DNA of 64,000 nucleotides from an uncultured Niastella sp. (GTDB lineage Bacteria > Bacteroidota > Bacteroidia > Chitinophagales > Chitinophagaceae). The notes under the pieces are model-generated. The model was not told where the DNA came from. It was given only the letters and a program-made list of their open reading frames with translations, and searched no databases. Below, piece by piece: positions 284-41,442 of this stretch; within the stretch, counting starts at the first letter, position 1; each line of letters begins with the position of its first letter. Location: the NCBI GenBank assembly GCA_966212235.1, contig CBIHPP010000002.1, forward strand, positions 291,499 through 355,498. Direction: 5' to 3'. A program made the position numbers and the translations under genes.

Positions 284-1753
284 ATGCCAATGCAAATGAG
301 CAAACCTTCTATCACGATTGCCTTAATAAGTGTGTGTATCCTGCTTCAACCTGGGTATAGTACCGGTCAGCAAACAAAAGCAGTAAGGCCTAATATTATT
401 TTTATCCTGGCCGATGATCTTGGCTATGGCGATCTGGGTTGTTATGGACAGAAACTGATTCAAACGCCTAACCTTGATGCCATGGCAAAACAGGGCATGC
501 AATTCACACAGTTTTATGCAGGCACTGCAGTCTGCGCTCCATCCCGCTCATCTTTGCTTACGGGGCAGCATACGGGGCATACCCCTATTCGGGGTAATAA
601 AGGCGTGGAACCCGAAGGGCAATGGCCTATACCTGATTCTGCAATTACTATTGCTGAGGTTTTAAAAAAAGGAGGCTATACAACTGGTAATTTTGGCAAG
701 TGGGGACTTGGACCGGTAGCGTCGTCCGGGGATCCAGTTAAACAGGGGTTTGATTTTTTTTATGGATATAACTGTCAATCCAAAGCACATGATTATTATC
801 CCGATCACTTATGGGAAAATGATACCCGCGTTGACTTTGCTGCCAATACGCCTGAACATCCTACCGATTATGCAGCCGAATTAATACATCAGAAGGCATT
901 GAACTTTATTGAACAGCAAAAAAGCAAGCCCTTCTTTTTATACCTTTCTTATACCTTGCCACATGCAGCGCTGCAAGTACCGAACGATAGCCTGTTTGCG
1001 AAATATAAAAAACTGTTTAATGAACAACCGGTTCCCGTAGAGCCCTGGAATGGCAAAGGATATGCACCACAGGCATATCCACATGCAGCATATGCAGCCA
1101 TGGTAAGCCGGTTAGATGCATACGTAGGGCAGGTGCTTCAAAAATTACGGGATTTGGGAATTGATAAAAATACACTGGTGATTTTTTCCAGCGATAACGG
1201 CCCGCATAAAGAAGGAGGTAACGATCCGGCCTACTTTAACAGCAATGGTTCATTACGTGGTATTAAAAGAGATCTGTATGAAGGTGGTATCCGGGAGCCG
1301 ATGATTGCCTGGTGGCCTGGTAAAATAAAAGCTGCCAGCATTTCTGATTATGCCGGAGCCTTCTGGGATTTTCTACCAACTTTTGCCGAAATCGCTAAAC
1401 AACCGAAACCAAAAAACATTGATGGCATTTCAATAGTACCCGTATTGTTGGGACAAAAAAAATCGCAGGTACACCCGTGGTTGTATTGGGAATTTCATGA
1501 ACAGGGCGGAAAGCAGGCTGTTCGTATGGGAAAATGGAAAGGCGTTAAATTAAATGCAGCCAGCCAACCCAATGGCCCCATTGAATTGTACGATCTGTAT
1601 TCAGATGTTTCAGAAATAAAAAATGTTGCAGACAAACATTCTGATGTAGTGAAGGCGATACAAAAAATTATGCAACAACAGCACCGTGAAAGTCCGGACT
1701 TTCCTTTGTTTACACAATCATCCGGTCTTTCCAATAAAAAGAACAGTGAATGA
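284..1753 (+). CDS. Cys-type arylsulfatase (sulfatase family), secreted
   Basis: N-terminal signal peptide; PNIIFILADDLGYGD, CAPSR (CxPxR formylglycine motif), GKWGLG, FSSDNG and GKRDLYEGG-like motifs. Confidence 0.95.
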   Translation: MPMQMSKPSITIALISVCILLQPGYSTGQQTKAVRPNIIFILADDLGYGDLGCYGQKLIQTPNLDAMAKQGMQFTQFYAGTAVCAPSRSSLLTGQHTGHTPIRGNKGVEPEGQWPIPDSAITIAEVLKKGGYTTGNFGKWGLGPVASSGDPVKQGFDFFYGYNCQSKAHDYYPDHLWENDTRVDFAANTPEHPTDYAAELIHQKALNFIEQQKSKPFFLYLSYTLPHAALQVPNDSLFAKYKKLFNEQPVPVEPWNGKGYAPQAYPHAAYAAMVSRLDAYVGQVLQKLRDLGIDKNTLVIFSSDNGPHKEGGNDPAYFNSNGSLRGIKRDLYEGGIREPMIAWWPGKIKAASISDYAGAFWDFLPTFAEIAKQPKPKNIDGISIVPVLLGQKKSQVHPWLYWEFHEQGGKQAVRMGKWKGVKLNAASQPNGPIELYDLYSDVSEIKNVADKHSDVVKAIQKIMQQQHRESPDFPLFTQSSGLSNKKNSE

Positions 1754-2895
1754 TATTGATAATTAGAAATAATAATAGGTTGACCTGGCTTTCTGCAGTA
1801 ATATTTACTGTAATTGCTGTGGGTTGTAAACAGTCAGCTGGAACAACACCTGCAAAAGAAAATATTCCTGCAGGTGATACTGTTATGTCGTGTTCTTCTA
1901 ATTTGCCATCGCGGTTTGCAACAGACAACTCAACGATTACAATAACGCCTGGTGGAGATAATTCCTACTCCGGTATGGTTAAAATTCCTGCAGGTGAATT
2001 CTTAATGGGCGCTGCCGATAAAGAGGGGAGGCCAGACGAATACCCGCAACATACTGTTCACGTTGATGGTTTTTGGATGGATGCTACCGAAGTGACCAAT
2101 GCCATGTTCAGGAAATTTGTGAAAGCAACCGGTTATGTTACAACGGCTGAGCGTGCACCCGATTGGGAAGCATTAAAAAAACAATTACCACCCGGTACCC
2201 CCAAACCTGCTGATACTTTACTGGTGGCAGCTTCACTGGTTTTCACCCCCACCACCCAACCTATTCAGCTGAATGATGTAAGTCAATGGTGGCAATGGGT
2301 AAAAGGCGCCGATTGGAAGCACCCCCAGGGACCAGGTAGCAGTGTTGAAGGAAAAGAAAATTACCCGGTTGTACAGGTGTCCTGGGATGATGCGACGGCT
2401 TATGCCAAATGGGCCGGCAAGCGATTGCCTACAGAAGCAGAATGGGAATGGGCGGCAAGAGCAGGGTTACCTTATCAACCATATACCTGGGGCACTGAGC
2501 CTGTCGATAAGGGCCAACAGAAGGCAAACATCTGGCAAGGGCATTTTCCCGATCGCAACACTGTTGCTGATGGATTTGCCCGCGTAGCGCCGGTAAAATC
2601 GTTTGCTGCTAATGCCTATGCTTTGTTTGATATGGCCGGAAATGTGTGGGAGTGGTGTTCCGATTGGTACAGATCGGATTATTATACGCAGACTGGTTCA
2701 AAAAAATTGATAAACCCGGCAGGTCCTGCTGCCAGCCACGATCCCGATGAACCCACTGTACCTAAACGAGTAGTGCGCGGCGGCTCTTTTTTATGTCATG
2801 CTTCTTATTGCGCCAGTTACCGGGTGTCGGCTCGTATGAAAACTTCACCCGACACAGGGCTGGAACATACCGGGTTCCGATGTGTAAAAAATTAA
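1750..2895 (+). CDS. Formylglycine-generating enzyme (SUMF1/FGE family) lipoprotein
   Basis: FWMDATEVTNA, RLPTEAEWE, DMAGNVWEW, RGGSFLCHASYC (both catalytic Cys); lipobox-like AVGC; ATGA overlap with the sulfatase stop. Confidence 0.93.
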   Translation: MILIIRNNNRLTWLSAVIFTVIAVGCKQSAGTTPAKENIPAGDTVMSCSSNLPSRFATDNSTITITPGGDNSYSGMVKIPAGEFLMGAADKEGRPDEYPQHTVHVDGFWMDATEVTNAMFRKFVKATGYVTTAERAPDWEALKKQLPPGTPKPADTLLVAASLVFTPTTQPIQLNDVSQWWQWVKGADWKHPQGPGSSVEGKENYPVVQVSWDDATAYAKWAGKRLPTEAEWEWAARAGLPYQPYTWGTEPVDKGQQKANIWQGHFPDRNTVADGFARVAPVKSFAANAYALFDMAGNVWEWCSDWYRSDYYTQTGSKKLINPAGPAASHDPDEPTVPKRVVRGGSFLCHASYCASYRVSARMKTSPDTGLEHTGFRCVKN

Positions 2896-9203: not shown

Positions 9204-9575
9204 ATGAATGATACGTTTGAAAAATTGGAAGGGTTAACCGATCATGTGAAGGAGTATATAAATACCAGGGTTGAAATAACCAAACTACACCTTGCCGAAA
9301 AAACATCCATGGTGATAAGCAATCTGATCGCAGTTACCATTGTAGTAGTGTTATTTTTATTTGTTATTGTTTTCGGAAGTATTGCTGGTGCCTGGGCGTT
9401 GAGTGAGTGGATTGGGAAATCATATTCAGGCTTTTTGATTGTAGCAGGTTTCTATTTGTTATTGGGCATTATAATATGGATGGCAAAAGACAAACTTATT
9501 CGTTTTCCGGTAATGAATGTTATCATAAAGCAATTACAGAAAAAGGATGATGACGATGATATTAACCAGGTTTAA
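9204..9575 (+). CDS. Two-TM membrane protein of the holin-X / phage-holin-like family (not evidence of a phage)
   Basis: KEYINTRVEITKL N-terminus and two hydrophobic helices; typical YtxH neighbour. Confidence 0.75.
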   Translation: MNDTFEKLEGLTDHVKEYINTRVEITKLHLAEKTSMVISNLIAVTIVVVLFLFVIVFGSIAGAWALSEWIGKSYSGFLIVAGFYLLLGIIIWMAKDKLIRFPVMNVIIKQLQKKDDDDDINQV

Positions 9576-22380: not shown

Positions 22381-23454
22381 CTACTGTATCGGACAGGCAC
22401 TTTTACTGTTTATACGTGGTTTACAGGCATTACCCGATTCCTGATCATAAGTACTTTGGTCCCATACAAAACCCAATTCAGAACTACCAGTGGTATAGGA
22501 GTACCGGTTTTGACCCACAGGTGCGTCGTGCGCTATACCAGCCCGCACTTTGTATCCATCGCCGCTATGACCGGCCAGGTTGATGGATAGGGTAACTGTA
22601 AAGGCATCATAATTACGAAAATTGACGCTGCCGCGGTACCATAAACCCAGGCTGATATCATACTGATTTTGGGTGATCTCGGTTCCTACCTGAAACGAAT
22701 TTTGCTTAGCCTGTGAATATACAATACCGGCTATGCTATAGGACCAGGTTTGTTCGGGATTGGTATAAGTATACATGACATTGCCAGACCAGCGAACGGG
22801 TAACTGGCTGCGAAAGGAATCGGCTGTATTGGTGATTGATTCATCGGGCCGGTTTACGTGGTGGGCGCTACCGCCCAGTAATAGTCGATTATTTTCATTC
22901 CAGTTGTAATTGAAGAAAAGCCCGGCTGAAAAATCAGGGTACCATTTACCGCTGTTTACAGCTTTGTCAGCAGAAGATACGCTGCCGGGAATTACACCAT
23001 CCACATCCAGTTGATCAGCAAAAACCAGCTTACTGTAATCAATTCGTCGTTGCACGAAACCAAATTGTAATCCACCACTGGCGAACCAACGGGGCTCATC
23101 CCCATTTTCTGCCGGTGATAAAGTGCCCGAGCAAATGGTATATGCATAGGACCCATAGATGCCGGTCTTTTTCAGGTAGCCTTCGGTAGAATGAGTGCCC
23201 ATTAATCCAAAACCTCCGTTGAGGGAAGGAATGAATTTATCGATCGATACGGCGCTGTATGAAATTTGAGAAGGAATGCTCCACCATTGCCGGCGATAGA
23301 TGCCACTCACACGAAGATCGTAATCACCTGCCCCCGTTGCTGCCGGGTTAAGGTAAATAGGTGATAGAAAGGATTGTGAAAATACCCCGTCCTGCGCATA
23401 CACAGCACTGGTAACCAGAAGGGCCATTAATGCAGTTAGTAGATATTTGAACAT
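22381..23454 (-). CDS. PorP/SprF family T9SS outer-membrane protein
   Basis: FSQSFLSPIYLNPAATG, YRRQW and HHVNRP motifs; start moved to MFKYLL (signal peptide); directly downstream of a CTD-B cargo. Confidence 0.9.
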   Translation of the reverse strand: MFKYLLTALMALLVTSAVYAQDGVFSQSFLSPIYLNPAATGAGDYDLRVSGIYRRQWWSIPSQISYSAVSIDKFIPSLNGGFGLMGTHSTEGYLKKTGIYGSYAYTICSGTLSPAENGDEPRWFASGGLQFGFVQRRIDYSKLVFADQLDVDGVIPGSVSSADKAVNSGKWYPDFSAGLFFNYNWNENNRLLLGGSAHHVNRPDESITNTADSFRSQLPVRWSGNVMYTYTNPEQTWSYSIAGIVYSQAKQNSFQVGTEITQNQYDISLGLWYRGSVNFRNYDAFTVTLSINLAGHSGDGYKVRAGIAHDAPVGQNRYSYTTGSSELGFVWDQSTYDQESGNACKPRINSKSACPIQ

Positions 23455-23536
23455 AATTCTATTTCGGGTTTGTGGTTCTTTATACTCGTGACGCACGCAA
23501 TTCATTGATGCCTCAATACTCTTTCATTCCTCATTT

Positions 23537-26500
23537 TTATTTAACTACCGTAATAAACCCGGCCTTTACATGCTTATCGCTTCCCGGATACTGCATGCCT
23601 TTCCATTCGGTACCGTTTATATACCGGCCTTCTATTTGCCAGCCATAACTGTCCTGTTGCAAAGGTTGTCCGTTGTATCTTCCATCCCAGGGTTCGCTGG
23701 GCGATCCATTGCCATCGAGCCGGCTTGTTTCAAATATCTTTTGTCCCCACGAATTAAAGATGCGCAACCGGTATTGCGACAATCCTTTACCCATGGGCAG
23801 AAACTGCCGTAAAGAGTGGTTGCTGCAACCCGGGCAAATGGCACTGGGCACATATAAATAGCCTGGTATATACAGGATGCGTACACGCACCGTATCATAG
23901 CCACTGCAACCGGTTCCATAATCCTGCACCAGCAACTGCACGCGATAAGAACCCGTATCAGCATATTGATAGGTGATCTTTTGTCCCGAAAGTTGCTGCC
24001 GGGTACGGTCACCCATATCCCATTGATATATTTTATTGGTGTTGGTTGGTATGGAATCCCAAAATGTAAAGGTGTAATCAGGTTGTACCAATACGTTTGA
24101 TGGCGACAACGCAATAGCAGGGCGTGGTAATGGTTGAATGTTCAGGCTGCCCCCTGAAACAGTATCACCGCATCCGGCTTCATTTTCGGCCAGTACCTGA
24201 ATAGTAAATAATGTTGGCACAGTACTAAGGGCCGGTGCACGGAACCGGAAATTAAACGGACTATCCATACCCTCCAGGCCATTATTGATAAACCATTTCA
24301 GGTCTACTTTATCGGTACCGGTATATTTAATGCCGGCCCTGAACGAGATGGTTGTATCATGATTGCAGGTGCTGCTATTAGCCGGCGTGTATTGAACTAC
24401 GGGTGTATTGTGTACTTCAAAAGTATAGGTCGTGCTATCTGCGCAATCCGATGTGGTATGCACTACCAGCTTCACCGAATAAATGCCGGGTTTCTTATAA
24501 ATATGCGCTGCAACCATACCGGTGCCTTTGAATACAAAGGGCGACTGGGTGCTGTCGTAAAATGTCCATTCCGTTTTTATGGCATTTGCTGCGCCCGTTG
24601 CGGTAGTTTGTAAGGTATATGGAATGCAGGTCTTACCCGGGCGTACCGATATTTTCGAAATGATTTTATCTGTTACTACTACCACACGCGAAGCGGTATC
24701 TGTACATACCATACCTGAATTGTTCAGTTTTTTGGCAACCTGGCGAATGGTGTATGTACCTGGCAATAGATAAGTATGTGCGTTTCCCGCCGAAGTAATT
24801 TGCCCGTCACCCCACAGCCACTCATAGGCAGTAGCATTGGTTGCGGTATTGGTTGTAAACACATTGCTACCGGTGCAAATAACAGGATAGCTGATATTGA
24901 ATCCGGCAATGGGCTTACTGTATACGGTGACATTGCGATATATCAATGTATCGGTACAACCGTTTTCCAGTTTGATACTTATTGTGTATTTGCCGCCATT
25001 GACGTAAGTATGGTTTACGATATTTTGAGTATTCGGTGTTGTTGCTAATGGCGATCCATCGCCAAAATTCCAGGTAAGAATGGAAGCGCCGGTACTGCTG
25101 TTGTTAAACGTAACGGCATGCGGAGCACAACCTTCCAGTTGATTTCCGTTTACCGATACATGTGCATCAATGGTGTTTGGCATTACCAGCAGGCTGATGG
25201 TTTGTGTATCGCGCCGGCATTGATTTTCGGCAATCAGCCTGAGGTCGAATGTGCTGATGGTCCCTGTATGATAAATATGAACGAAGGTGTTGTTGCTGGT
25301 AGTTGTATCCCTAAAGCCATCGCCAAAATTCCAGTAATAGGCAAAGTTGTTACCGGCCGATTTATTGGTTATAGTTACATCAAAAGGAGAGCAACCCTTC
25401 GTGGTATCAACTGTAAACCGGGCCTTTGCATCGGCATATACCAGCACGCTGTCACGATGGTACGAAGTATCGCACCCGTTATAGGCTTTCAAGGTAATAT
25501 AATAGGTCGTATCGCGAAAATCAGGACTGTTATTATAAGTAACAACGGAAGGTGACGGCTGGCTACTGGTGATGCCATTTCCAAAATTCCAGAAGAACTG
25601 TATGCCATTTAACTGGCTCGATGTATTGGTGAACGCGACCTTCAATGGACCACAACCTTTTGACATATCTTTTGTAAAGCCGGCCGTAACGCCTGGTACG
25701 GTATGAAAGATGGTCTCCATACTATCGGCTTTACAACCATGGGCGCTGGTGGCAACCAGCTTTACCACCACGGTTTGGGCCTGGCCGGTAATCGGATAGC
25801 TGGGAAATGCACCGTTTGTATTAGACCCAATACTTACTCCGTTGGCATACCAGTTATACATGCCATTGCCTTGGGGGAATGGAATCGTTTTAATTACAGA
25901 ATCCAGATTTACCGGTGCACATTTGGTAGTGCCGGTTGCCGTGAATTGTGCTTTGGCATCGGGATTTACAATTATTTGCACATTGGCTGTATCGGCACAA
26001 CCGTTGGCCAGTAACCCTGCAACATAATATGTAGTTGTTACAGATGGGGTTGCAATTACAGTGTCTGGCGTAATACCAGTCAATGTTGCTGTTGGCCACC
26101 AGGTATATGCAGTGGCGCCATCAGCCGCCAGTTTAATACTGTTTCCAATACAAATAGCAGTGGCCGCGGTGGATATGGTAACTACCGGCCGGCGTTTTAC
26201 GGTGATATATATGGAGTCTTCCGTAGCGCAATTGGCGCCAATAGAGGCTGTTAATTTATAACCATAGGTGGTATCGGCTGCGGTGCCTGGATAATCGAGG
26301 GTTAAAAACGGATTGGCGCTTCCCGCATTATTAAGTCCGGTTGCAGGTGACCATTGATACGTTACACCATTTACCGCTGGTGAACCAATGGCAATGGTTT
26401 CCCTGCTGCAAATAGTGACGTCATTCCCGGCTTTGGCAACAGGTTTATCGATAATGGTGACGGTTGTATTTACCAGGGCACTGGTGTTGCAACTGCTGTC

Positions 26501-28627
26501 GATTACTTTGAATTGAACCGCAAACGTTCCGGTACTGGTATATTGTATGGTGCCAGGATCCAATTGGGTTGCTGTGGCGGGCGTGCCGTTGGCAAACGTC
26601 CATTGATAGCCCATAGGGCCGGGCGAATAGCAAGTGCTTGTAATAGCTGATGGCAGAAGCCCGTTACTGATACATACCGGACCGATGGTATTGATGGCCG
26701 CATTGGGTAACCCCTTTACATAAAACGTATCTTCTTTAAACGATTCCGGGCAAGCAAGCCCGGCAGTTACGGCAGTAACCAAAAGACGCACAACATACCG
26801 GCCTGGTACATTGAATTGTATTTCAGGCGAGGCGCTGTTCAGCGTTGAACCGTTTATAAACTGCCAGGTAGGGGATTGGCCGGTTCCACAACCCAACGGA
26901 TCGCTATAGGTTACCGTCCATTTATAATTATCGCCCTGACATCCGTTTGCCGGTGAAGTATTGGTAAAAATGGCGCTGCCAGCTCCGCAACTGCTTTTGC
27001 GGTTCATAGTGAATTGAGCATCGGGGGCCTTGCGAACGCAGATCACCTTCATCGTACTGTCTAAACCACACTTATCATTAAATATATACAGCTTTACCGT
27101 GTACGTACCGGTTGCTGTAAAATTCAGATTTAGTAAACCAGTACCGGTTGTCCATAAAAAGCCATTTGTGGAACTACCGTTTAATGAACCCGTGGAGCCT
27201 GAGGTGATCGTATAACCGGTAGCCGGAGAAATGGTCCAAACCTGTTTGCCCGAATTGATACAGGTAGAACCGGTGCCGCCGGTGGGCGTGATCACTGACC
27301 CATATGCCGAATTGCTGATGAGGGATACGTTTGTATTGGTGCACACTGTTTCGGACGGGGCAATGTATATATTGGCGCGTGGCTTACCCGATACATAGAT
27401 GGGCACTACCGATGGGCTGGTAGTACCGCAAGGGTTTTCGATGGTTAAATAAGCCCCAAATGCATTGTTGAATGTATTATTACCGCTGCTGCTTACAAAG
27501 GAGCAGGAACCTTGTGAAAAGAAATGCGATGCAACCGATGGCGGAACATGTTGAAATACCTGCGCAGCCGTACCATCATTAATAAGGAATGTATACTGTG
27601 TGCCTGGCGGGTTGGCTGAAATATTGTTGATGGCAAACCGCAATGAATCGGATGCACAGATATCCGTATTGCCAAGACTCGACAAACCGCCTGCCGGCGT
27701 AGAACCGAGAAATACAATGTATTTTTTAATTCCTATACAGCCATCGGAGCCGGTTACGCTAACCGTCATGGTGCTGCTGCCTAAAGGGAAAATGTGTTTT
27801 ATGATAGTGGCTGCTGGCCAGGTATTGAATGTAGTATCAGGTGTACCATCGCCCCATGAAATGGCATAGCTGGTATTAATAGGCGTTGTAGTTGACTGAT
27901 TAATAAAGCTAAAAATATAGGAAGCGATATTCGAGCAGCGCCTGAAAGTAGGCACGCCATTGAAGGTACCAAAGCTTATAGCGGCATCGGCATTGCCAAC
28001 CGTTGCATCCGGAACATTTTTAACGGTAACATTTCGGGTAGTTGAATCTTTACAACCATATAAATTGGTAACAACCAGTTTTACGGGGTAAACCGTTGTG
28101 CCGGGCATGCCTACCGCTTGTAGAAATTGGTGGGTAGGGTTGGCCAGTGTGCTGGTACTGCCATCGCCAAAATCCCAGTCGTACGACAATCCGGTTCCGA
28201 TCGATTGATCCGTGAATTGCGTATTGATATTTCCACAAACATTATCTGGTGAGAAACCGAAACCGGCTGTGGGCCTGTTATTCGAAACATGCACCACAAT
28301 AAACATGGAGTCAACCATATTTCCGCCGTCTACTAATTGATTGGTTATATAGAACCCTGCAGCTGGATAATTCACGATGATGGGTCCCAGGCCGGTAGCC
28401 GTTGCCTGGCTGCCACCGGTAAATTTCCAGTAGATATTCATAGAGCCCTGTGCTGAACTCTGGTAGGTAAGCGAATTGCCTTCACATACCCGCACGGTAT
28501 CTCCGTAATTTATAATCCGGCCATCGGCTCTTATACCGGCTGTCACCTGCGTGAATGCCGGAGATGCAAAGAGTATCGGGATCAACAATAATAATAACAA
28601 GACAGACGACTTTCTGGTCTGACGCAT
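23537..28627 (-). CDS. Large PKD-repeat surface protein with T9SS type B (gliding-motility) C-terminal domain
   Basis: Signal peptide; repeated WDFGDG/WNFGDG PKD motifs; C-terminal IFNSWGQKIF...WDGRYNG...GFITVVK. Confidence 0.92.
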   Translation of the reverse strand: MRQTRKSSVLLLLLLIPILFASPAFTQVTAGIRADGRIINYGDTVRVCEGNSLTYQSSAQGSMNIYWKFTGGSQATATGLGPIIVNYPAAGFYITNQLVDGGNMVDSMFIVVHVSNNRPTAGFGFSPDNVCGNINTQFTDQSIGTGLSYDWDFGDGSTSTLANPTHQFLQAVGMPGTTVYPVKLVVTNLYGCKDSTTRNVTVKNVPDATVGNADAAISFGTFNGVPTFRRCSNIASYIFSFINQSTTTPINTSYAISWGDGTPDTTFNTWPAATIIKHIFPLGSSTMTVSVTGSDGCIGIKKYIVFLGSTPAGGLSSLGNTDICASDSLRFAINNISANPPGTQYTFLINDGTAAQVFQHVPPSVASHFFSQGSCSFVSSSGNNTFNNAFGAYLTIENPCGTTSPSVVPIYVSGKPRANIYIAPSETVCTNTNVSLISNSAYGSVITPTGGTGSTCINSGKQVWTISPATGYTITSGSTGSLNGSSTNGFLWTTGTGLLNLNFTATGTYTVKLYIFNDKCGLDSTMKVICVRKAPDAQFTMNRKSSCGAGSAIFTNTSPANGCQGDNYKWTVTYSDPLGCGTGQSPTWQFINGSTLNSASPEIQFNVPGRYVVRLLVTAVTAGLACPESFKEDTFYVKGLPNAAINTIGPVCISNGLLPSAITSTCYSPGPMGYQWTFANGTPATATQLDPGTIQYTSTGTFAVQFKVIDSSCNTSALVNTTVTIIDKPVAKAGNDVTICSRETIAIGSPAVNGVTYQWSPATGLNNAGSANPFLTLDYPGTAADTTYGYKLTASIGANCATEDSIYITVKRRPVVTISTAATAICIGNSIKLAADGATAYTWWPTATLTGITPDTVIATPSVTTTYYVAGLLANGCADTANVQIIVNPDAKAQFTATGTTKCAPVNLDSVIKTIPFPQGNGMYNWYANGVSIGSNTNGAFPSYPITGQAQTVVVKLVATSAHGCKADSMETIFHTVPGVTAGFTKDMSKGCGPLKVAFTNTSSQLNGIQFFWNFGNGITSSQPSPSVVTYNNSPDFRDTTYYITLKAYNGCDTSYHRDSVLVYADAKARFTVDTTKGCSPFDVTITNKSAGNNFAYYWNFGDGFRDTTTSNNTFVHIYHTGTISTFDLRLIAENQCRRDTQTISLLVMPNTIDAHVSVNGNQLEGCAPHAVTFNNSSTGASILTWNFGDGSPLATTPNTQNIVNHTYVNGGKYTISIKLENGCTDTLIYRNVTVYSKPIAGFNISYPVICTGSNVFTTNTATNATAYEWLWGDGQITSAGNAHTYLLPGTYTIRQVAKKLNNSGMVCTDTASRVVVVTDKIISKISVRPGKTCIPYTLQTTATGAANAIKTEWTFYDSTQSPFVFKGTGMVAAHIYKKPGIYSVKLVVHTTSDCADSTTYTFEVHNTPVVQYTPANSSTCNHDTTISFRAGIKYTGTDKVDLKWFINNGLEGMDSPFNFRFRAPALSTVPTLFTIQVLAENEAGCGDTVSGGSLNIQPLPRPAIALSPSNVLVQPDYTFTFWDSIPTNTNKIYQWDMGDRTRQQLSGQKITYQYADTGSYRVQLLVQDYGTGCSGYDTVRVRILYIPGYLYVPSAICPGCSNHSLRQFLPMGKGLSQYRLRIFNSWGQKIFETSRLDGNGSPSEPWDGRYNGQPLQQDSYGWQIEGRYINGTEWKGMQYPGSDKHVKAGFITVVK

Positions 28628-35342: not shown

Positions 35343-35399
35343 CTGGAATAGCTGATCGCGATTAAACAGTAAAAAAGCCGTCCCGGCTTTACCCGGAAC

Positions 35400-35888
35400 T
35401 TACACATCCCACAGGCACAGTACCGCATGTTTGTTTCGGTTGATAAAAGGTGTTATTCGCTCTGTATGCAGTTGCCTGGCCTTCATAAACCAGCATTCCG
35501 GTGTTACCTTATTGGCTGTATCAGTGAGGTAAGCCAGTGGAAATAACTTATTACCTGTATGTACCTCAACCACAGCTTGTGGCTTATTGATACGTTGCAG
35601 GGTATGCACCATCAGCTTTTCTGTTACAAAAGTGATGTTCTCATTGGTGGTCACCTGAAAGCCATTTTTAGTATAGCGAAGGTGGGTGATCTTGCTGGCG
35701 TTCAGTTGGGTGACTGTTACCCCTAACCGGTTGAACACGTTATCTACAGATGCTGGTGTAGCCTCCTCATCGTGTATAATAAGCAGCGAAGTGCTGATGG
35801 TTTTGGACGATGCCATTGCCCATGAAGGGGATGCCAGCAGTGCTGGTAGTAATAAACCTGAATTATATAAAAAATCGCGACGTCGCAT
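35400..35888 (-). CDS. Hypothetical protein with Tat-like signal peptide
   Basis: MRRRDFL...PSWAMA; 17 bp after the T9SS cargo stop. Confidence 0.65.
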   Translation of the reverse strand: MRRRDFLYNSGLLLPALLASPSWAMASSKTISTSLLIIHDEEATPASVDNVFNRLGVTVTQLNASKITHLRYTKNGFQVTTNENITFVTEKLMVHTLQRINKPQAVVEVHTGNKLFPLAYLTDTANKVTPECWFMKARQLHTERITPFINRNKHAVLCLWDV

Positions 35889-35905
35889 GGTTGTAGGTTA
35901 ATGTG

Positions 35906-38164
35906 TTATTTTACTAATTTATACGTGTATGCCCGCCCGTTCAATTGTATCCTCAACAGGTAAATACCGGGTACCAGTTTATCAATACCGGTCACGGGAA
36001 TAATGGTTTCTCCTTTCGGTACAGACAGGTACACTGTTTTCAGTGTTTTACCGGTCACATCACTTAGTTGAAGCGTTCCCTGTGCCGCCTCGGGCATTTG
36101 CACGGTTACTTTTACATAACCGGTAAACGGATTGGGCGTTATGCCGATAACCGGTGAATTGGCATCGGTCAGCGATATAGTTACGGTCTTACTGTATTCT
36201 ATAGCACCGTTGGTGCTTACCATTTTTAAGCGATAGTATAATTTTGAAGGGCTCAATTGTGCGGCATTTGCATCAACAAAGTTGTAGTTCCGCAACCCGC
36301 TGCTATTGCTGCCTGCGACGCGCCCGGCAGATGTAAAGTTTTGTCCGGCTATGCTTCTTTCTACTTCAAAATAATCATGGTCGATCTCGCTTTCGGTTTG
36401 CCATTGTAGTAGTACATCGCTATTGGTTAAACGGCCGGTAAAACTGATCAGGTTCAGTGGCAGGGCGAATAAAGCCGTTTGTACAAAAAAACCGCCAAAG
36501 CCGGCAACGGGTATGGTTATTTCCCAGCGGTTGTACGTGCTGTTCCATACAATATCGGGGTCATTGGGGTCAATCACAATTCCGCTCGTTGCATTATAAG
36601 AAATTGGTAACCCGGTGCCATTGCTGCTGGTGCCCGGCAATTTACCCACACGCAAATTGGCTTTACCCAAATTATCATTGGGGCCGGTAGGTAAATCGGG
36701 ATCGCTGACCATGGCTGCATTGAAAGCATCAAATTCGGCCTGGGTAAAGTATAACGTCACGGTACCGGTGGCGGTAGCGGCATTAATGGCCGGTGAAATA
36801 TCATAGTGCCGGGCAACAAAAGGCTTACTGGCTGCTACAGGCACAGCGCTTTCTACCCATACTTTACTGGTAATAGTATCGGTAGCAGCGTTGGCGCCCG
36901 ATGGCACTACCTTAGCTATCAGGGTGCAGGGAGCACTATAGTAAAAGTTGTTTTGGGTATTAACAGTTTGGGTAAGTGAGGCGGCTGAAGTGGGTAAGCC
37001 GGCATTTACGGTGAGCAATGCGCCGGTGCTGTTTACCGGGCCGCACGTATTGCTTACAACGGCCCGGTAATAACGGCCGGTTAAGAGGGTATTGTCAAGA
37101 ATACTTAGTGCAGGTGTGGCTACGCCATTGTACACACTGTTGTTGCCAAGCGTAACGGGCGAAGTAAAAACGGCATCGGTACTTTGCTGCCATTGATAAT
37201 TTAATGTGCCCGTACCGGCGGCAGCTACGGAGTAGGCGGTCGTTAACCCATAACATACGTTCTGTGCTACAGGATTGGTACTCACCGTAACCGGATTATT
37301 CAGGGTAAATGAAGAGTGGCCAGAGGTTGTACCTATGGCAAACGCTGTATTGCTAAGCGTATTATTGGCAGGGGTATTTACTGATGTTATTAACGTGGCT
37401 AAGGCACAGGCGGTGGAGCCGGTACCGTTGTATTTTCCGTTATCGAATTCTCCACTACCTGGGGTAGCTACGGGCAGCGTAGCCTGCGATAATAAAAAGG
37501 CAGTGGCGCCATTGATTAAACCGGGTGGCAAACTGCTTTGATGACCGCCGGCAGGAGAGCTGCCATCCCATTGGGTATAATTAGTTATAGTGGGCTCCAC
37601 GTTAGCATGTATGGCGGTTAAAAACTGGCGGTTAGCATCAAGATAGTTGCCGGCGGGCCCTGCGGAGGAACCTGTTTGATAAGCCAACACCTGGTCGCCG
37701 CCGGAACTTAGCTCCATGTAATTGGTGCCGCTTTCGGTGGAAACGGTGCCGGCAGTACCGGTGCCATTTTCATTTAACCAGGCGACCCAGCTTGTAACCG
37801 GGTCGTTATAGCTGCTGATGAAAAATACTTCGGTCCCAAAAGCAATACCGCCGGCAGGCACGGTCCATTTTATAAAACCTTCCGATAAGCCTGAAATAAA
37901 ATTAGCCGTACTGGCATTCCAGCCATTATCGGTAAAATAGATAACAGTGCCTGCGGCCAATCCACCGTTCTTCAATACCGCTATTGAAAAACGATCGGTA
38001 TAAGCGGTAGCGCCACCCAGGTCAACATGGCTGAGGTCTTTATCGCTTTGATAGCTGGTGATCACTATGTCGCCCGCCGAAAGGTTGTTTTGTGCATAAC
38101 CATGCACGGTAATAACCAGCAAGACAGCGATACAGGAACCCGCAATCCTGAAAAATTGTTGCAT
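35906..38164 (-). CDS. T9SS type A cargo (unknown N-terminal domain, Ig-like domain, CTD-A)
   Basis: Signal peptide; LPLNLISFTG linker; C-terminal ITPNPF...DVTGK...GIYLLRI...KLVK. Confidence 0.9.
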   Translation of the reverse strand: MQQFFRIAGSCIAVLLVITVHGYAQNNLSAGDIVITSYQSDKDLSHVDLGGATAYTDRFSIAVLKNGGLAAGTVIYFTDNGWNASTANFISGLSEGFIKWTVPAGGIAFGTEVFFISSYNDPVTSWVAWLNENGTGTAGTVSTESGTNYMELSSGGDQVLAYQTGSSAGPAGNYLDANRQFLTAIHANVEPTITNYTQWDGSSPAGGHQSSLPPGLINGATAFLLSQATLPVATPGSGEFDNGKYNGTGSTACALATLITSVNTPANNTLSNTAFAIGTTSGHSSFTLNNPVTVSTNPVAQNVCYGLTTAYSVAAAGTGTLNYQWQQSTDAVFTSPVTLGNNSVYNGVATPALSILDNTLLTGRYYRAVVSNTCGPVNSTGALLTVNAGLPTSAASLTQTVNTQNNFYYSAPCTLIAKVVPSGANAATDTITSKVWVESAVPVAASKPFVARHYDISPAINAATATGTVTLYFTQAEFDAFNAAMVSDPDLPTGPNDNLGKANLRVGKLPGTSSNGTGLPISYNATSGIVIDPNDPDIVWNSTYNRWEITIPVAGFGGFFVQTALFALPLNLISFTGRLTNSDVLLQWQTESEIDHDYFEVERSIAGQNFTSAGRVAGSNSSGLRNYNFVDANAAQLSPSKLYYRLKMVSTNGAIEYSKTVTISLTDANSPVIGITPNPFTGYVKVTVQMPEAAQGTLQLSDVTGKTLKTVYLSVPKGETIIPVTGIDKLVPGIYLLRIQLNGRAYTYKLVK

Positions 38165-38252
38165 GTGAATATTTGTTATTTATAATAGGGAAGCCCTATC
38201 GTATCAAAATAGTTGAATGGTTCTTAAGAGGTTATTGGATATAATGAATAGA

Positions 38253-39401
38253 TCAAATGCACAGATATGTATTTCGCCAGCTGGTGATAATGCCGTCTGG
38301 CACCTGTTGCATCATTTCATCAAATACCGCGGTGGTATCGGCTATCACGTCCCTCACCTGTATTTGCAGTTCGCCGGTGGCGCTTACCAGGTAAGCCGGA
38401 CCGGTAACTATATTGCTGTTGTTTATGCGCAGTTGTCCGCGCGGACTTTGCACCGGTTGCTTTTTCAGTTTTTCAATGGCTGCGGGCACAGCGGAGCCGG
38501 TTTGTTTGTGTTGTAAATAATGCAGCATCAGCAAGGCGGTTTCCCATCCCTGTAAGGTGAACAGGTTGGCGGCCTTGTGGTGTGCATTTTTAAAAAGCTG
38601 TATGAAATTGTTGTTGTCCGCATTATCCAGTACGGGTACCCAGGGGGTATAGCCCTGTATGTGTTGTACGTAAGGATGTGTGTCGGTAAAATCGCCTGGC
38701 GTACTATCGAACAACATGGGCGAGCCGAACAACTGCAAATTGTATTGTTTTTGTAAGGGTGCTACCTGTTCATAAAAACACCGGGCCATATCGCCGCTAT
38801 ACAAACAAAGCAAGGTGTTCACTTCCGGGTTGCTTTGTATAAAAGCAGCCAGCGGTTGTATGGTAAACGCCTGTTTTTTATAATGACTGATAAAGTTGAA
38901 TCGTATTGCGCCGCCTGCCGCTTCAAATGCATTGCCCATCGCATGGGCGTGCTGGTAACCACCATCGTAATAAGAAGTGGCGGAAATAGCGCTTTTATTG
39001 GGTGTTGATTGCTGGCATAATTGTCCGGTTAAATAAGCGCACAGGCTGTCATTCAACAAATTGAACAGCGTATGGTCGTTGCCTGAATTTACAGCAGGGT
39101 AGTGTGCGCCTGCATTCACTATGACCAACAATTTACCGGCAGCGGCAAACAGTTTACCCAATGTCTTTGCCAGGTGATCTTCTGCGTATATCACCAATAT
39201 ATCCACATCATGTACCAGCAATAATTTTTCTGCTTCTTTATACAGTTCTTCCTCATTCAACCCAAACCCGGCAATCGCATTGTGAAAGGTAACCTCATTG
39301 GCCTGGTGGTAGGAAAAACAGGTTTTTATCCCTTGCAGGAAATCAATTCCTATGGAGGGGTAGAGTGTTGAACCTGGTAGCAGTAATCCTATAGAGGCCA
39401 T
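38253..39401 (-). CDS. Type I periplasmic-binding-protein fold (LivJ/AmiC-like) lacking a signal peptide
   Basis: Starts at IGLLLPGS (first strand of the fold); LQGWETAL and SPRGQLRI C-terminal motifs. Confidence 0.75.
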   Translation of the reverse strand: MASIGLLLPGSTLYPSIGIDFLQGIKTCFSYHQANEVTFHNAIAGFGLNEEELYKEAEKLLLVHDVDILVIYAEDHLAKTLGKLFAAAGKLLVIVNAGAHYPAVNSGNDHTLFNLLNDSLCAYLTGQLCQQSTPNKSAISATSYYDGGYQHAHAMGNAFEAAGGAIRFNFISHYKKQAFTIQPLAAFIQSNPEVNTLLCLYSGDMARCFYEQVAPLQKQYNLQLFGSPMLFDSTPGDFTDTHPYVQHIQGYTPWVPVLDNADNNNFIQLFKNAHHKAANLFTLQGWETALLMLHYLQHKQTGSAVPAAIEKLKKQPVQSPRGQLRINNSNIVTGPAYLVSATGELQIQVRDVIADTTAVFDEMMQQVPDGIITSWRNTYLCI

Positions 39402-39432
39402 ATGTTGGTGTTAGGTATATTATTTTGATTAC

Positions 39433-39981
39433 TTACTGGCGCGATGGGAAAGCACCTGCCATGGAAATGATCCAGTTAAGTGCCAGCACGGGTTGCATAA
39501 TACCAACCGGTGAATTATTGCCTGAATTGCCAATCGCGAGATTGTGTTGCATGGGAATAGTGCTGCCAGCGTCTTTGGCGCTGTTGTAAGTAGCCGTGCC
39601 TGTTTGCATGGCGGGATACGTATTGTAGGGAGTATCGGTGTTTCCTGCCGTGGTTGTGCCCGGTTGAGTAATTACGCCTGTTATGTTGTGGCTGTGTGCG
39701 GGAAGGTTATTGATAGTGAGTACAGTGGTTTCAGAACCTCCCTGTTGTCCCCAATCATAGAATGATAGATCATTGCCTTGTCCTATGCCTACAGCTACGC
39801 GTCCCTGCAGGTTGGGCAGGGCAAAAGTAGTTCTGCCATCACCGCCATAGGTAGGGCCCAGCAATGCAAATAAAGCGGTGTACTGTCTTATAGGAATTAC
39901 CTGTCCGTTGCAAAATGCCCAGCCTACAGGCGCAAAATCGCCGGCAAATAATCTTATTTCTGCAAGAATTTCATCAGCCAT
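39433..39981 (-). CDS. Phage tail-collar domain protein (microcystin-dependent-protein-like), copy 3
   Basis: EIRLFAGDFAPVGWAFCNGQ, ALFALLGPTYGGDGRTTFALPNLQGR, HSH; start moved to MADEIL. Confidence 0.92.
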   Translation of the reverse strand: MADEILAEIRLFAGDFAPVGWAFCNGQVIPIRQYTALFALLGPTYGGDGRTTFALPNLQGRVAVGIGQGNDLSFYDWGQQGGSETTVLTINNLPAHSHNITGVITQPGTTTAGNTDTPYNTYPAMQTGTATYNSAKDAGSTIPMQHNLAIGNSGNNSPVGIMQPVLALNWIISMAGAFPSRQ

Positions 39982-39992
39982 AAAATGTATTG

Positions 39993-40532
39993 TTAGGTAG
40001 TGGGATAAATGCCCTCCAGGCAAATGATATAATGAACGGCCAGGTAGGGTTGAACATTACTGAATGGCTCGGGCTGGGCGCTACCCGTACTGCCAACCGT
40101 AAGCGAGGGCGTAAAACCTGCCATTTGACTGCCGTCACTTGTAGTAGAATAAATGTTCTGTCCGTTTACAGCCGGGTAATTATTACCGGGTGTAACGCGG
40201 TGGCCGTCTTCGCTTGATACCGGTATGCTGGCGCTGCCTGTTACAAGATGATTATGAAGCGGCAGATTTGATGGAAGGAGCGTAATTGTTTCCTGCCCGT
40301 TTTTTTGTGCCAGCGTAAAAGTTCCAAACACGCTGCTGCCCTGGCCCACTGGTATGCGGCCTTGCAGGTCGGGTACATTAAAATAGGTTTGGCCGTCGCC
40401 ACCATAGGTTTCACCAATGAGGGTATGTAAGGCATCATATTCTGAAATAAGTAATGCCTGGCCATGGCAAAAAGCCCAACCCACGGGCGCAAAGCTACCG
40501 CCGAACATCCTGATCTCTCCGATATATGGCAT
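39993..40532 (-). CDS. Phage tail-collar domain protein, copy 2
   Basis: GEIRMFGGSFAPVGWAFCHGQ, TYGGDGQTYFNVPDLQGR, HNH. Confidence 0.92.
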   Translation of the reverse strand: MPYIGEIRMFGGSFAPVGWAFCHGQALLISEYDALHTLIGETYGGDGQTYFNVPDLQGRIPVGQGSSVFGTFTLAQKNGQETITLLPSNLPLHNHLVTGSASIPVSSEDGHRVTPGNNYPAVNGQNIYSTTSDGSQMAGFTPSLTVGSTGSAQPEPFSNVQPYLAVHYIICLEGIYPTT

Positions 40533-40541
40533 ATTGTATAA

Positions 40542-41087
40542 TTATTGTCTTTGAGGAAAAACACCGTACATGCAAATGATATAGTTTACTACCAGGTAAG
40601 GCATCATATTATTAAAGGGAACGCTGCCCCCGGCAGCACTGGTAGCAAGATTCGCGGTGGCGGGTTGCATGGTTACGCCATCGTGCTGGGCATCGTACTT
40701 TTTACTTCCATCATTGGCGAAAAAGCCCGCAGCAGGCGATTGCTGGTTACCGGTTTGGCTGGTAGCCGGCAGATTGATGGAGCCAGTAAGGGTATGTGTG
40801 TGTACCGGTAGTTGTGACCAATTCAACGTGTTTTCAATAGTTCCGGTCCTTTGTCCCAGGGTATAAAAGGGGGACGCGGAATCTGTTCGTCCCACCCCAA
40901 TGGCTGATCTTCCTGCCAGGTTAGGCAGACAAAATGTGGAGATGCCATCACCACCGTAGTTGGTGCCGAGTATGGAAAATAAAGCCTGGTTTTGCTGGAT
41001 ACTTATAAATTGACCGGAGCAGGGTGCCCAGTATTTTGGCGTAAAACCGGGGGCAAACAGGCGAATTTCTCCTAAAAATCCATCCAT
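40542..41087 (-). CDS. Phage tail-collar domain protein, copy 1
   Basis: GEIRLFAPGFTPKYWAPCSGQ, NYGGDGISTFCLPNLAGR, HTH. Confidence 0.92.
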   Translation of the reverse strand: MDGFLGEIRLFAPGFTPKYWAPCSGQFISIQQNQALFSILGTNYGGDGISTFCLPNLAGRSAIGVGRTDSASPFYTLGQRTGTIENTLNWSQLPVHTHTLTGSINLPATSQTGNQQSPAAGFFANDGSKKYDAQHDGVTMQPATANLATSAAGGSVPFNNMMPYLVVNYIICMYGVFPQRQ

Positions 41088-41410
41088 AAATCAACGGGTA
41101 TTAGTGATTAGTGGGTCAAATGTATGTGTATTAGTGTATAAATAACATCAAAACGAGCTTTCTCCCCCTAACATGGGATATAAAGGGATTTCATTAAAAA
41201 TCTCATAAACCTGCTACAGCAAAACAATCAATAAATGCCTACCTTTGCGGCGCAAATCGACGCCCGGCCATTTCTACCCATTGAACGCACCCAACAGTTA
41301 AAACAGGCGCCAATAACCTGCCAATCCGGTTCAAACCCATTGAACATCAGCAAATAGCCCGTGATAAAAATAATTTATCCCTTTATAAAAAGAAATGATA
41401 CAATGCTGTT

Positions 41411-41442
41411 TATACTTTTTAGTATAGATTATTGTACCTTTG
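41411..41442 (+). promoter_or_regulatory. suf promoter region: palindrome TATACT-N4-AGTATA (41411-41426) and -7 box TACCTTTG (41435-41442)
   Basis: Both seen directly; a second TACCTTTG lies at 41240-41247; operator role is inference. Confidence 0.45.

Follow-up and report, generated by a model that had tools for sequence, protein, structure and literature searches.

Few recognition devices are as well understood as the receptor-binding tips of phages, and in bacteriophage T4 the proteins gp12 and gp37 are homotrimers whose HxH motifs bind metal on the three-fold axis. A stand-alone, chromosomal version of such tips is kept across several phyla beside large surface proteins. The locus described here is one example: six genes at positions 35400-41087, on the minus strand, of a 64-kb stretch of contig CBIHPP010000002.1 from an uncultured Niastella sp., the whole stretch being called the window hereafter. 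From 5' to 3', the genes encode three tail-collar proteins (TC1, TC2, TC3), a protein with the fold of periplasmic binding proteins (PBP), a predicted type IX secretion system (T9SS) cargo and a protein with a predicted twin-arginine translocation (Tat) signal. Comparison with related loci reveals a conserved, non-viral cassette that links fibre-tip proteins, a PBP-fold protein and a T9SS protein opening with a shared domain, the N-domain. That the six genes are a reduced member of this Bacteroidota cassette, in which a metal-stapled collar trimer works as a knob together with the adhesin, is a reading to which an even chance can be given.

Several described systems resemble the locus in part. 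The T4 tips gp12 and gp10 (PDB 1ocy and 1pdi) resemble the window proteins in their collar domain and in an HxH motif behind it, the head region of the window proteins being only weakly similar to Gp10_C. They are, however, the C-terminal ends of long baseplate-attached fibres that need phage chaperones, whereas the window tips are stand-alone proteins of about 180 amino acids, in three paralogues and with no shaft. The tripartite tail of the DSLV2 virophage is likewise encoded by three consecutive small PF07484 genes of similar size (PMC12724248). Its proteins form a fibre of about 16 nm and are reported to bind cyanobacterial lipopolysaccharide (PMC12724248; Chu et al. 2025, J Virol) and, upon co-expression, the three consecutive PF07484 proteins (together about 58 kDa) co-purify as a heterotrimer complex of about 55 kDa (PMC12724248). 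In DSLV2 these are virion genes located beside capsid genes, whereas the window triad is chromosomal, with no capsid or virion genes in scans of the 64-kb window. The window triad moreover shares its operon with genes for a PBP-fold protein, a T9SS-secreted surface protein and a Tat-signal protein, and a heterotrimer of its products is a prediction. Small bacterial PF07484 proteins outside prophages are also found in the COG4675 'microcystin-dependent protein' family, to which no function is assigned, and the same label is given by the Joint Genome Institute (JGI) to the collar homologues of the window. Finally, a collar domain is carried by RhiB of the Rhizobium rhiABC genes (PMC13133039), and MrpB of Microcystis is RhiB-like and co-transcribed with mrpA (PMC3328848). 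RhiB and MrpB are nevertheless single genes in quorum-sensing- or light-regulated operons with RhiA or MrpA, and no triad, PBP or T9SS adhesin has been described for them.

The six genes of the window lie in one orientation with inter-gene gaps, taken from their coordinates, of 9, 11, 31, 88 and 17 bp, which agrees with the six co-oriented genes and gaps of 9-88 bp given in a preliminary description made from the letters alone. The same description had listed three signal-less collar paralogues with HTH, HNH and HSH motifs, a signal-less PBP-fold protein, a type-A (CTD-A) cargo and a Tat-like protein, and these assignments are confirmed by PF07484 matches and alignment for the first three and by Peripla_BP_6, TIGR04183 and an invariant RRxF motif, respectively, for the others. 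In particular, TC1 (40542..41087, 181 amino acids), TC2 (39993..40532, 179 amino acids) and TC3 (39433..39981, 182 amino acids) match PF07484 with E-values of 1.2e-21, 6.8e-26 and 9.5e-28 and scores of 76.8, 90.4 and 96.4 bits against a gathering cut-off of 24, while their Gp10_C matches, at 17.6-26.6 bits (TC3 = 26.6), fall short of the cut-off of 27. TC1 also matches PHROG tail proteins at E 2.8e-23. The three proteins are 40-45% identical to one another, differ most in a variable middle region and carry one HxH motif each (in the contexts PVHTHT, PLHNHL and PAHSHN); exactly one such motif is present in all 206 cassette collar proteins. They open directly with the first collar strand (M..GEIRLF) and hence have no room for a signal peptide. 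TC3 weakly matches the collar of T4 gp12 (PDB 1ocy, E 0.0077), and it has full-length homologues, at 33-37% identity, among the minor tail proteins of actinophages. The start of TC3 is placed at the ATG at 39981, as favoured by the family alignment; the TTG start at 40023 of the list of open reading frames (ORFs) was rejected, as it overlaps TC2 and adds 14 residues found in no homologue.

The conservation of this arrangement was assessed in a census of 84 loci, comprising 80 species-level genome loci retrieved with the PBP-family profile, 3 found by exact look-up and the window itself, in which ORFs were called and then labelled with purpose-built hidden Markov models (HMMs). The collar genes lie directly upstream of the PBP gene, on the same strand, in 83 of the 84 loci, the exception being a contig that starts inside the PBP gene, and in 61 loci a gene on the same strand, starting at most 3.5 kb downstream, encodes a secreted protein that opens with the N-domain (detected by an HMM of residues 25-285); nine of the 23 loci without it are truncated contigs. 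The operon linkage, on which the preliminary description had let its proposal depend, is thus conserved. Loci with three collar genes (44) or with two (33) predominate; 4 loci have a single copy and 1 has four. Directly after the PBP gene, and often overlapping its stop codon, 67 of the 84 loci have a gene similar to methionyl-tRNA formyltransferase (Fmt-like; Formyl_trans_N plus Formyl_trans_C). The cassette loci come from Chitinophagaceae, Sphingobacteriaceae, Spirosomataceae, Fluviicola and Solitalea. Literature searches brought up no account of the cassette.

The window shares two defining features of the cassette, having three collar genes 31 bp upstream of a PBP that ends in W-x-N-T-Y-L-C-I, and downstream, after a gap of only 88 bp, an N-domain protein. 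The Fmt-like HMM finds no such gene in the window or in any of the five Niastella loci with a close PBP copy (L004-L008), and the gene is also absent in the Pedobacter group, among others. Because of this absence, the window is a reduced variant of the cassette and not a full member. The preliminary description had overlooked that the window copy is a reduced form, without the Fmt-like enzyme and without the accessory genes for hydroxylases and sulfation that are present in most relatives. Indeed, many relatives have a divergent accessory block encoding a Tat-signal 5'-nucleotidase-like metallophosphatase (PDB 5h7w, E 5e-14) and two Asp/Arg-hydroxylase-type proteins, together with a 2-oxoglutarate (2OG)-Fe(II) oxygenase, an adenosine 5'-phosphosulfate (APS) kinase fused to DUF2061, a sulfotransferase-like protein and a small cytidylyltransferase-like protein. 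Examples are found in L001 (2408-7269), L002, L009 and L012-L019. This gene content suggests hydroxylation and sulfation of some substrate; none of the accessory-block genes is present in the window. What the window adds is a naturally minimal form without the formyltransferase, the N-domain as a component of the cassette and the association with a Tat protein.

Variants of the cassette without a PBP were also encountered. A Niastella metagenome-assembled genome (MAG; L005, 12.4-kb contig) carries two cassettes in tandem, three collar genes-cargo-Tat followed by three collar genes-PBP-cargo-Tat; since the first of them keeps the other genes without a PBP, collar genes, cargo and Tat protein travel together in Niastella. 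Another locus, of Bacteroidota type (L088, 1-16549), has three collar genes, an Fmt-like gene and a 2OG oxygenase, no PBP, and the sulfate-activation genes CysC, CysD and CysN directly upstream. Nearby lies a set of genes with the look of lasso-peptide biosynthesis (PqqD, Transglut_core3, Asn_synthase, ScmC and Sulfotransfer_1), and on the other side at least four more collar genes adjoin a Lipase_3 gene. In a further lineage of Bacteroidota (L090), the triad and PBP are accompanied by a giant protein that bears both the N-domain and a CHU_C sorting domain, with no Fmt-like gene.

The conserved arrangement also bears on the origin of the collar genes. Pfam scans covered the six operon proteins and about 30 further large ORFs of the window (about 36 in all, with a few small ORFs left out) and returned no capsid, sheath, baseplate, portal or integrase gene, in line with what the preliminary description had noted. 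PHROG matches are confined to the three collar proteins and are all to tail proteins. In parallel, the PBP family is compact, is found only in Bacteroidota, with named members from Niastella and other Chitinophagaceae, and has no relatives in IMG/VR. With a G+C content of 0.45-0.49, the operon does not stand out from its surroundings, and the suf and ATP-binding cassette (ABC) transporter flanks of the locus are the same in N. vici. The collar genes can accordingly be regarded as not viral, because no phage genes turned up among the scanned ORFs of the window, the PBP family is absent from IMG/VR and N. vici shares the flanks. A decaying prophage or tailocin remnant without a function of its own has next to no probability: the domain family taken alone is phage-like, as is the uniform assignment of the PHROG matches to tail proteins, yet none of the six reading frames is broken, the gene order recurs in more than 80 species-level genomes with the paralogues held at 40-60% identity, and neither other phage genes among the scanned window ORFs nor a foreign G+C content accompany them. 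The view of the preliminary description that these genes are no phage remnant is supported.

The phage-like sequence of the tips could also be taken to point to an anti-phage decoy, in which cytoplasmic tip mimics would spoil phage tail fibres or released knobs would mask phage receptors. The collar proteins are full-length homologues of phage minor tail proteins, at the identities given above, and are made without export signals. However, no PADLOC model matches the six proteins or the Fmt-like enzyme, the neighbourhood is a syntenic, housekeeping one with no defence island, and the phage homologues come from actinobacterial, Ralstonia and cyanobacterial phages, not from Bacteroidota phages. 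The constant partners are moreover adhesins and acyltransferases, which a decoy leaves unexplained, and this function is thus considered very improbable.

Collar triads are not restricted to Bacteroidota. Homologues of TC2 occur in Firmicutes, Actinobacteria and Acidobacteriota, with 45-51% identity by BLAST and 51-56% in global alignment. The triad of Cohnella (L084) is accompanied by a 1,797-residue cadherin/SLH protein, a GNAT and a DUF6916 protein, that of Nocardioides (L085) by a 1,847-residue cadherin/RTX protein and a DUF6916 protein, that of a Thermoanaerobaculia MAG (L086) by a 1,879-residue cadherin/Big_9 protein, a GNAT and a DUF6916 protein, and that of a further contig (L087) by a 1,721-residue Big_5/cadherin protein and a GNAT. 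The statement, in the preliminary description, that triads elsewhere often sit beside GNAT genes and large secreted proteins was therefore accurate for these loci, each of which has GNAT, DUF6916 or both. Across phyla, the constant partner of the four sampled triads is a giant surface protein, while an N-acyltransferase, either GNAT or Fmt-like, is a frequent and dispensable partner.

The three collar genes raise the question of whether their products assemble with each other. In a tree of 206 collar proteins, each position label needs 4-6 changes, as compared to about 40 when labels are shuffled, and TC1 groups with first-position copies. Counterparts of TC2 in Cohnella, Nocardioides, the acidobacterial MAG and another Chitinophagaceae locus share 51-56% identity with it, versus 40-43% for TC1 and TC3 of its own operon, and TC2 thus belongs to an orthogroup that crosses phyla. 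Likewise, each member of the Nocardioides triad has its own counterpart in the acidobacterial triad, at 57, 65 and 62% identity. The heterotrimer suggested by the preliminary description gains from this agreement between position and orthology, from the cross-phylum TC2, from the single HxH motif kept in all 206 proteins and from the virophage precedent; its obligate 1:1:1 form is only partly supported. Two observations weigh against the latter: the 33 two-copy loci among the 84 have pairs that are 62-85% identical, without the TC2 type, and independent re-duplications have taken place in the Pedobacter group and in L069, L045 and L050. Since copy number varies and two-copy loci are without the TC2 type, a strict 1:1:1 trimer cannot be general.

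For the window itself, the balance is even as to whether its three collar proteins form a mixed trimer. On this sub-question, three separate homotrimers, each knob with its own specificity, which would give the cell a small repertoire of binding tips, appear less probable. Homotrimers would fit the flexible copy number of one to four with its recurrent lineage-specific duplications and the concentration of divergence between paralogues in the middle region, and the phage homologues, T4 gp12 and gp37 among them, are stated to be homotrimers (PMC12724248). They account less well for a gene order and orthogroups kept over long distances, with TC2-type orthologues across phyla, for a spacing of 9-11 bp that suggests equal co-translation, and for a virophage triad of the same size that co-purifies as a heterotrimer.

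Taken together with the adhesin, a collar trimer could operate as follows. The collar proteins would fold in the cytoplasm as a trimer, with a metal ion held on the three-fold axis by the three HxH motifs, as in T4 gp12 and gp37; in three-gene loci, the trimer would probably be mixed, with one chain per gene. The PBP-fold protein would bind a small ligand or escort the trimer. The trimer would work with the surface protein as a binding knob and would most likely dock on its N-domain, and the Tat-signal protein would act on the periplasmic side of the same process. Further findings tell against this scheme. No collar protein or PBP has an export signal, and a surface role would hence need an additional export route, as these proteins are signal-less. 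In addition, the N-domain HMM misses the giant proteins of Cohnella, Nocardioides and the acidobacterial MAG, and the N-domain therefore cannot be a universal docking site, as it is not detected in the giants of other phyla.

The PBP-like protein (38253..39401, 382 amino acids; Peripla_BP_6, E 4.6e-16) starts at strand 1 of the Peripla_BP_6 fold, and a signal peptide is absent in all 16 aligned members. Its C-terminus reads SWRNTYLCI (encoded at 38253-38279, minus strand), and in homologues down to 38% identity these final eight positions, W-x-N-T-Y-L-C-I, vary little or not at all. Such conservation at the extreme C-terminus is unusual, and it suggests that the tail is a docking or modification site. 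Searched against PDB at E<=0.001, the family profile matches only four solute-binding proteins (SBPs) of aromatic-acid transporters, the best being 4evq (E 4e-21) and 4ey3; no AmiC-like chain is matched at this threshold. An identity as a LivJ-like SBP of an ABC transporter was rejected, as the signal peptide is missing and the resemblance is a fold match (Peripla_BP_6) only. No Liv-type permease is encoded in the window, where the nearby ABC system is of the MacB/FtsX type. The most conserved columns of the family presumably map to the loops lining the ligand cleft of LivJ-type proteins. AmiC of Pseudomonas aeruginosa is a cytoplasmic protein with the type-I PBP fold that has no transporter and binds its ligand on behalf of a partner protein. 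The window PBP is like AmiC in being a cytoplasmic PBP fold and unlike it in that its partner is not an antiterminator.

Alternatively, the collar trimer and the PBP, elsewhere with the Fmt-like enzyme or GNAT, could form a purely cytoplasmic complex that senses a ligand or metal or joins a modification pathway (hydroxylation, sulfation, N-acylation) with the adhesin or a small molecule as its product or substrate, the link to the surface protein being regulatory or biosynthetic rather than physical. Such a complex would be consistent with the absence of signal peptides from collar proteins and PBP in every locus, with the overlap of the PBP stop with the Fmt-like start in relatives, and with accessory enzymes that likewise have no signal peptides (the Asp/Arg hydroxylases, 2OG oxygenase, APS kinase, sulfotransferase-like and cytidylyltransferase-like proteins). 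The presumed position of the most conserved PBP columns in the ligand-cleft loops, and the aromatic acids bound by the closest solved relatives, are also in agreement with such a complex. On the other hand, the collar proteins have the fold of a receptor-binding tip that works outside the cell and no output domain for DNA binding or signalling, and the window cassette has lost every enzyme while keeping collar genes, PBP, cargo and Tat protein; across phyla, moreover, it is the giant surface protein that is constant and no single enzyme. A cytoplasmic complex is thus rather unlikely, although more probable than a decoy or a remnant.

The surface protein with which the knob would act has 752 amino acids in the window (35906..38164) and is a predicted T9SS type-A cargo. 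Its hydrophobic, Sec-type N-terminus ends with GYAQ, and its C-terminal type-A sorting domain (about residues 675-752; 35906..36142) matches TIGR04183 over residues 675-752 (E 8.4e-9; 35.3 bits against a cut-off of 23) and Por_Secre_tail over residues 677-751. The AlphaFold model of the whole cargo, with a predicted local distance difference test (pLDDT) of 87, comprises a signal helix, the N-domain, a string of Ig-like beta-sandwich domains and the sorting domain, and a fold search of this model against PDB returned generic immunoglobulin (Ig)/fibronectin type III (FN3) strings only. The N-domain (residues 25-285; 37310..38092) is all-beta when modelled alone, with a pLDDT of 85.5 and a predicted template modelling (pTM) score of 0.89. 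Fold searches with it in PDB and BFVD gave no match at E<=0.001, and among 49 members searched none matches a Pfam or NCBIfam model. At E<=0.001, its profile in turn finds 4,478 representative clusters, and at E<=1e-30 it still finds 632. Judged by these matches, the N-domain is a large domain family that has no database model and merits a family definition of its own. Residues ~10-400 of the cargo show homology to the opening part of proteins that other loci encode downstream of the PBP or Fmt-like gene; among these are proteins of 425-460 amino acids and giants of 2,000-3,000 amino acids that contain the unit up to three times.

The last gene of the operon (35400..35888) encodes a protein of 162 amino acids that starts with MRRRDFLYNSGLLLPALLASPSWAMA (MRRRDFL at the outset, then AMA). 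R2, R3 and F5 (R-R-x-F) are invariant among 16 aligned homologues, and a moderately hydrophobic stretch and an AxA site follow the twin-arginine motif; the protein is thus a predicted Tat substrate. Homologues of it come after the cargo gene in 18 loci. Longer members of the family (about 210 amino acids) retain a GxGxxG Rossmann motif that is lost in the window copy, and matches of the family in PDB to oxidoreductases dependent on flavin adenine dinucleotide (FAD) are weak (best E 0.007). Homology to DUF6916 was rejected, as the probability assigned by hhalign was 1%. Twin-arginine motifs are present in 40 of 45 5'-nucleotidase-like members and in all 19 members of the 162-residue family, against 5 of 550 unlabelled neighbouring ORFs, and Tat signals on cassette proteins extend to the further Bacteroidota lineage mentioned above (L090). 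Outside the phylum, the DUF6916 protein of Nocardioides (L085, 9130-9549) has a twin-arginine signal (TRRTVLG) and that of Cohnella is without one; in the acidobacterial MAG, a 250-residue protein encoded directly after the triad (L086, 7452-8204) has the signal DRRDFLV.

Tat and T9SS both carry folded cargo, and a folded trimer could therefore reach the surface in two piggy-back steps. Two successive exports of this kind would build a surface organelle: the folded collar trimer would first ride across the inner membrane on a Tat-signal partner, here the 162-residue protein, then dock in the periplasm on the N-domain of the adhesin, and the two would exit together through the T9SS pore. The enrichment of Tat signals among cassette proteins speaks for this route. 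It is nevertheless a long shot, more plausible than the decoy and well behind a cytoplasmic complex. No Tat family was found in 21 of the 84 Bacteroidota loci, some of which are on truncated contigs, nor in L084, L087 and L088, which speaks against it.

If the knob reaches the surface, signal-less folded proteins would have a route of export, and bacteria a modular means of giving adhesins phage-type specificity; if it stays inside the cell, a viral recognition fold would have gained a new use in the cytoplasm. The Bacteroidota form adds to the triad a dedicated cytoplasmic binding protein, usually a second formyltransferase, and a surface protein with an N-domain that no database model describes. 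The cassette is testable in culturable relatives, and the form in the window, with three collar genes, PBP, N-domain cargo and Tat protein, is close to the smallest found and hence convenient for reconstitution.

As for the surroundings of the operon, a terminator-like hairpin with a T run (35374..35399, minus strand; found by a consensus scan only) lies directly 3' of the last stop codon. At the other end, a 352-bp divergent intergenic region (41088..41439) is shared with sufB and is the presumed promoter region of the operon. A TAnnTTTG-like element (TACATTTG) located about 30 nt upstream of the TC1 ATG is a putative match to the Bacteroidota -7 consensus. A sigma-70 promoter scan, whose model does not cover Bacteroidota promoters, gave 9 sites versus 11 expected. 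A functional link to the divergent suf operon was considered and dropped, as the neighbourhood is common only to N. vici.

Elsewhere in the window, Pfam matches identify GH92, SusC/D-type proteins, pairs of extracytoplasmic function (ECF) sigma factor and FecR, the MacB-type ABC system, a GDSL lipase, the suf operon with an Rrf2 regulator and a papain-family protease. The only phage-named match in the window is a 123-residue Phage_holin_3_6-like membrane protein (9204-9575, plus strand, E 6.6e-12), which is isolated and 30 kb away from the operon. A PorP/SprF gene lies directly downstream of the gene for a 1,696-residue PKD-repeat protein (22381-28627, minus strand), the usual arrangement of a type-B T9SS cargo and its anchor, and its presence indicates that the organism uses T9SS. 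Finally, at 284-2895 (plus strand) a sulfatase gene is followed by a gene for the formylglycine-generating enzyme (FGE-sulfatase), the start of which overlaps the stop codon of the former, which corresponds to an enzyme together with its maturase.

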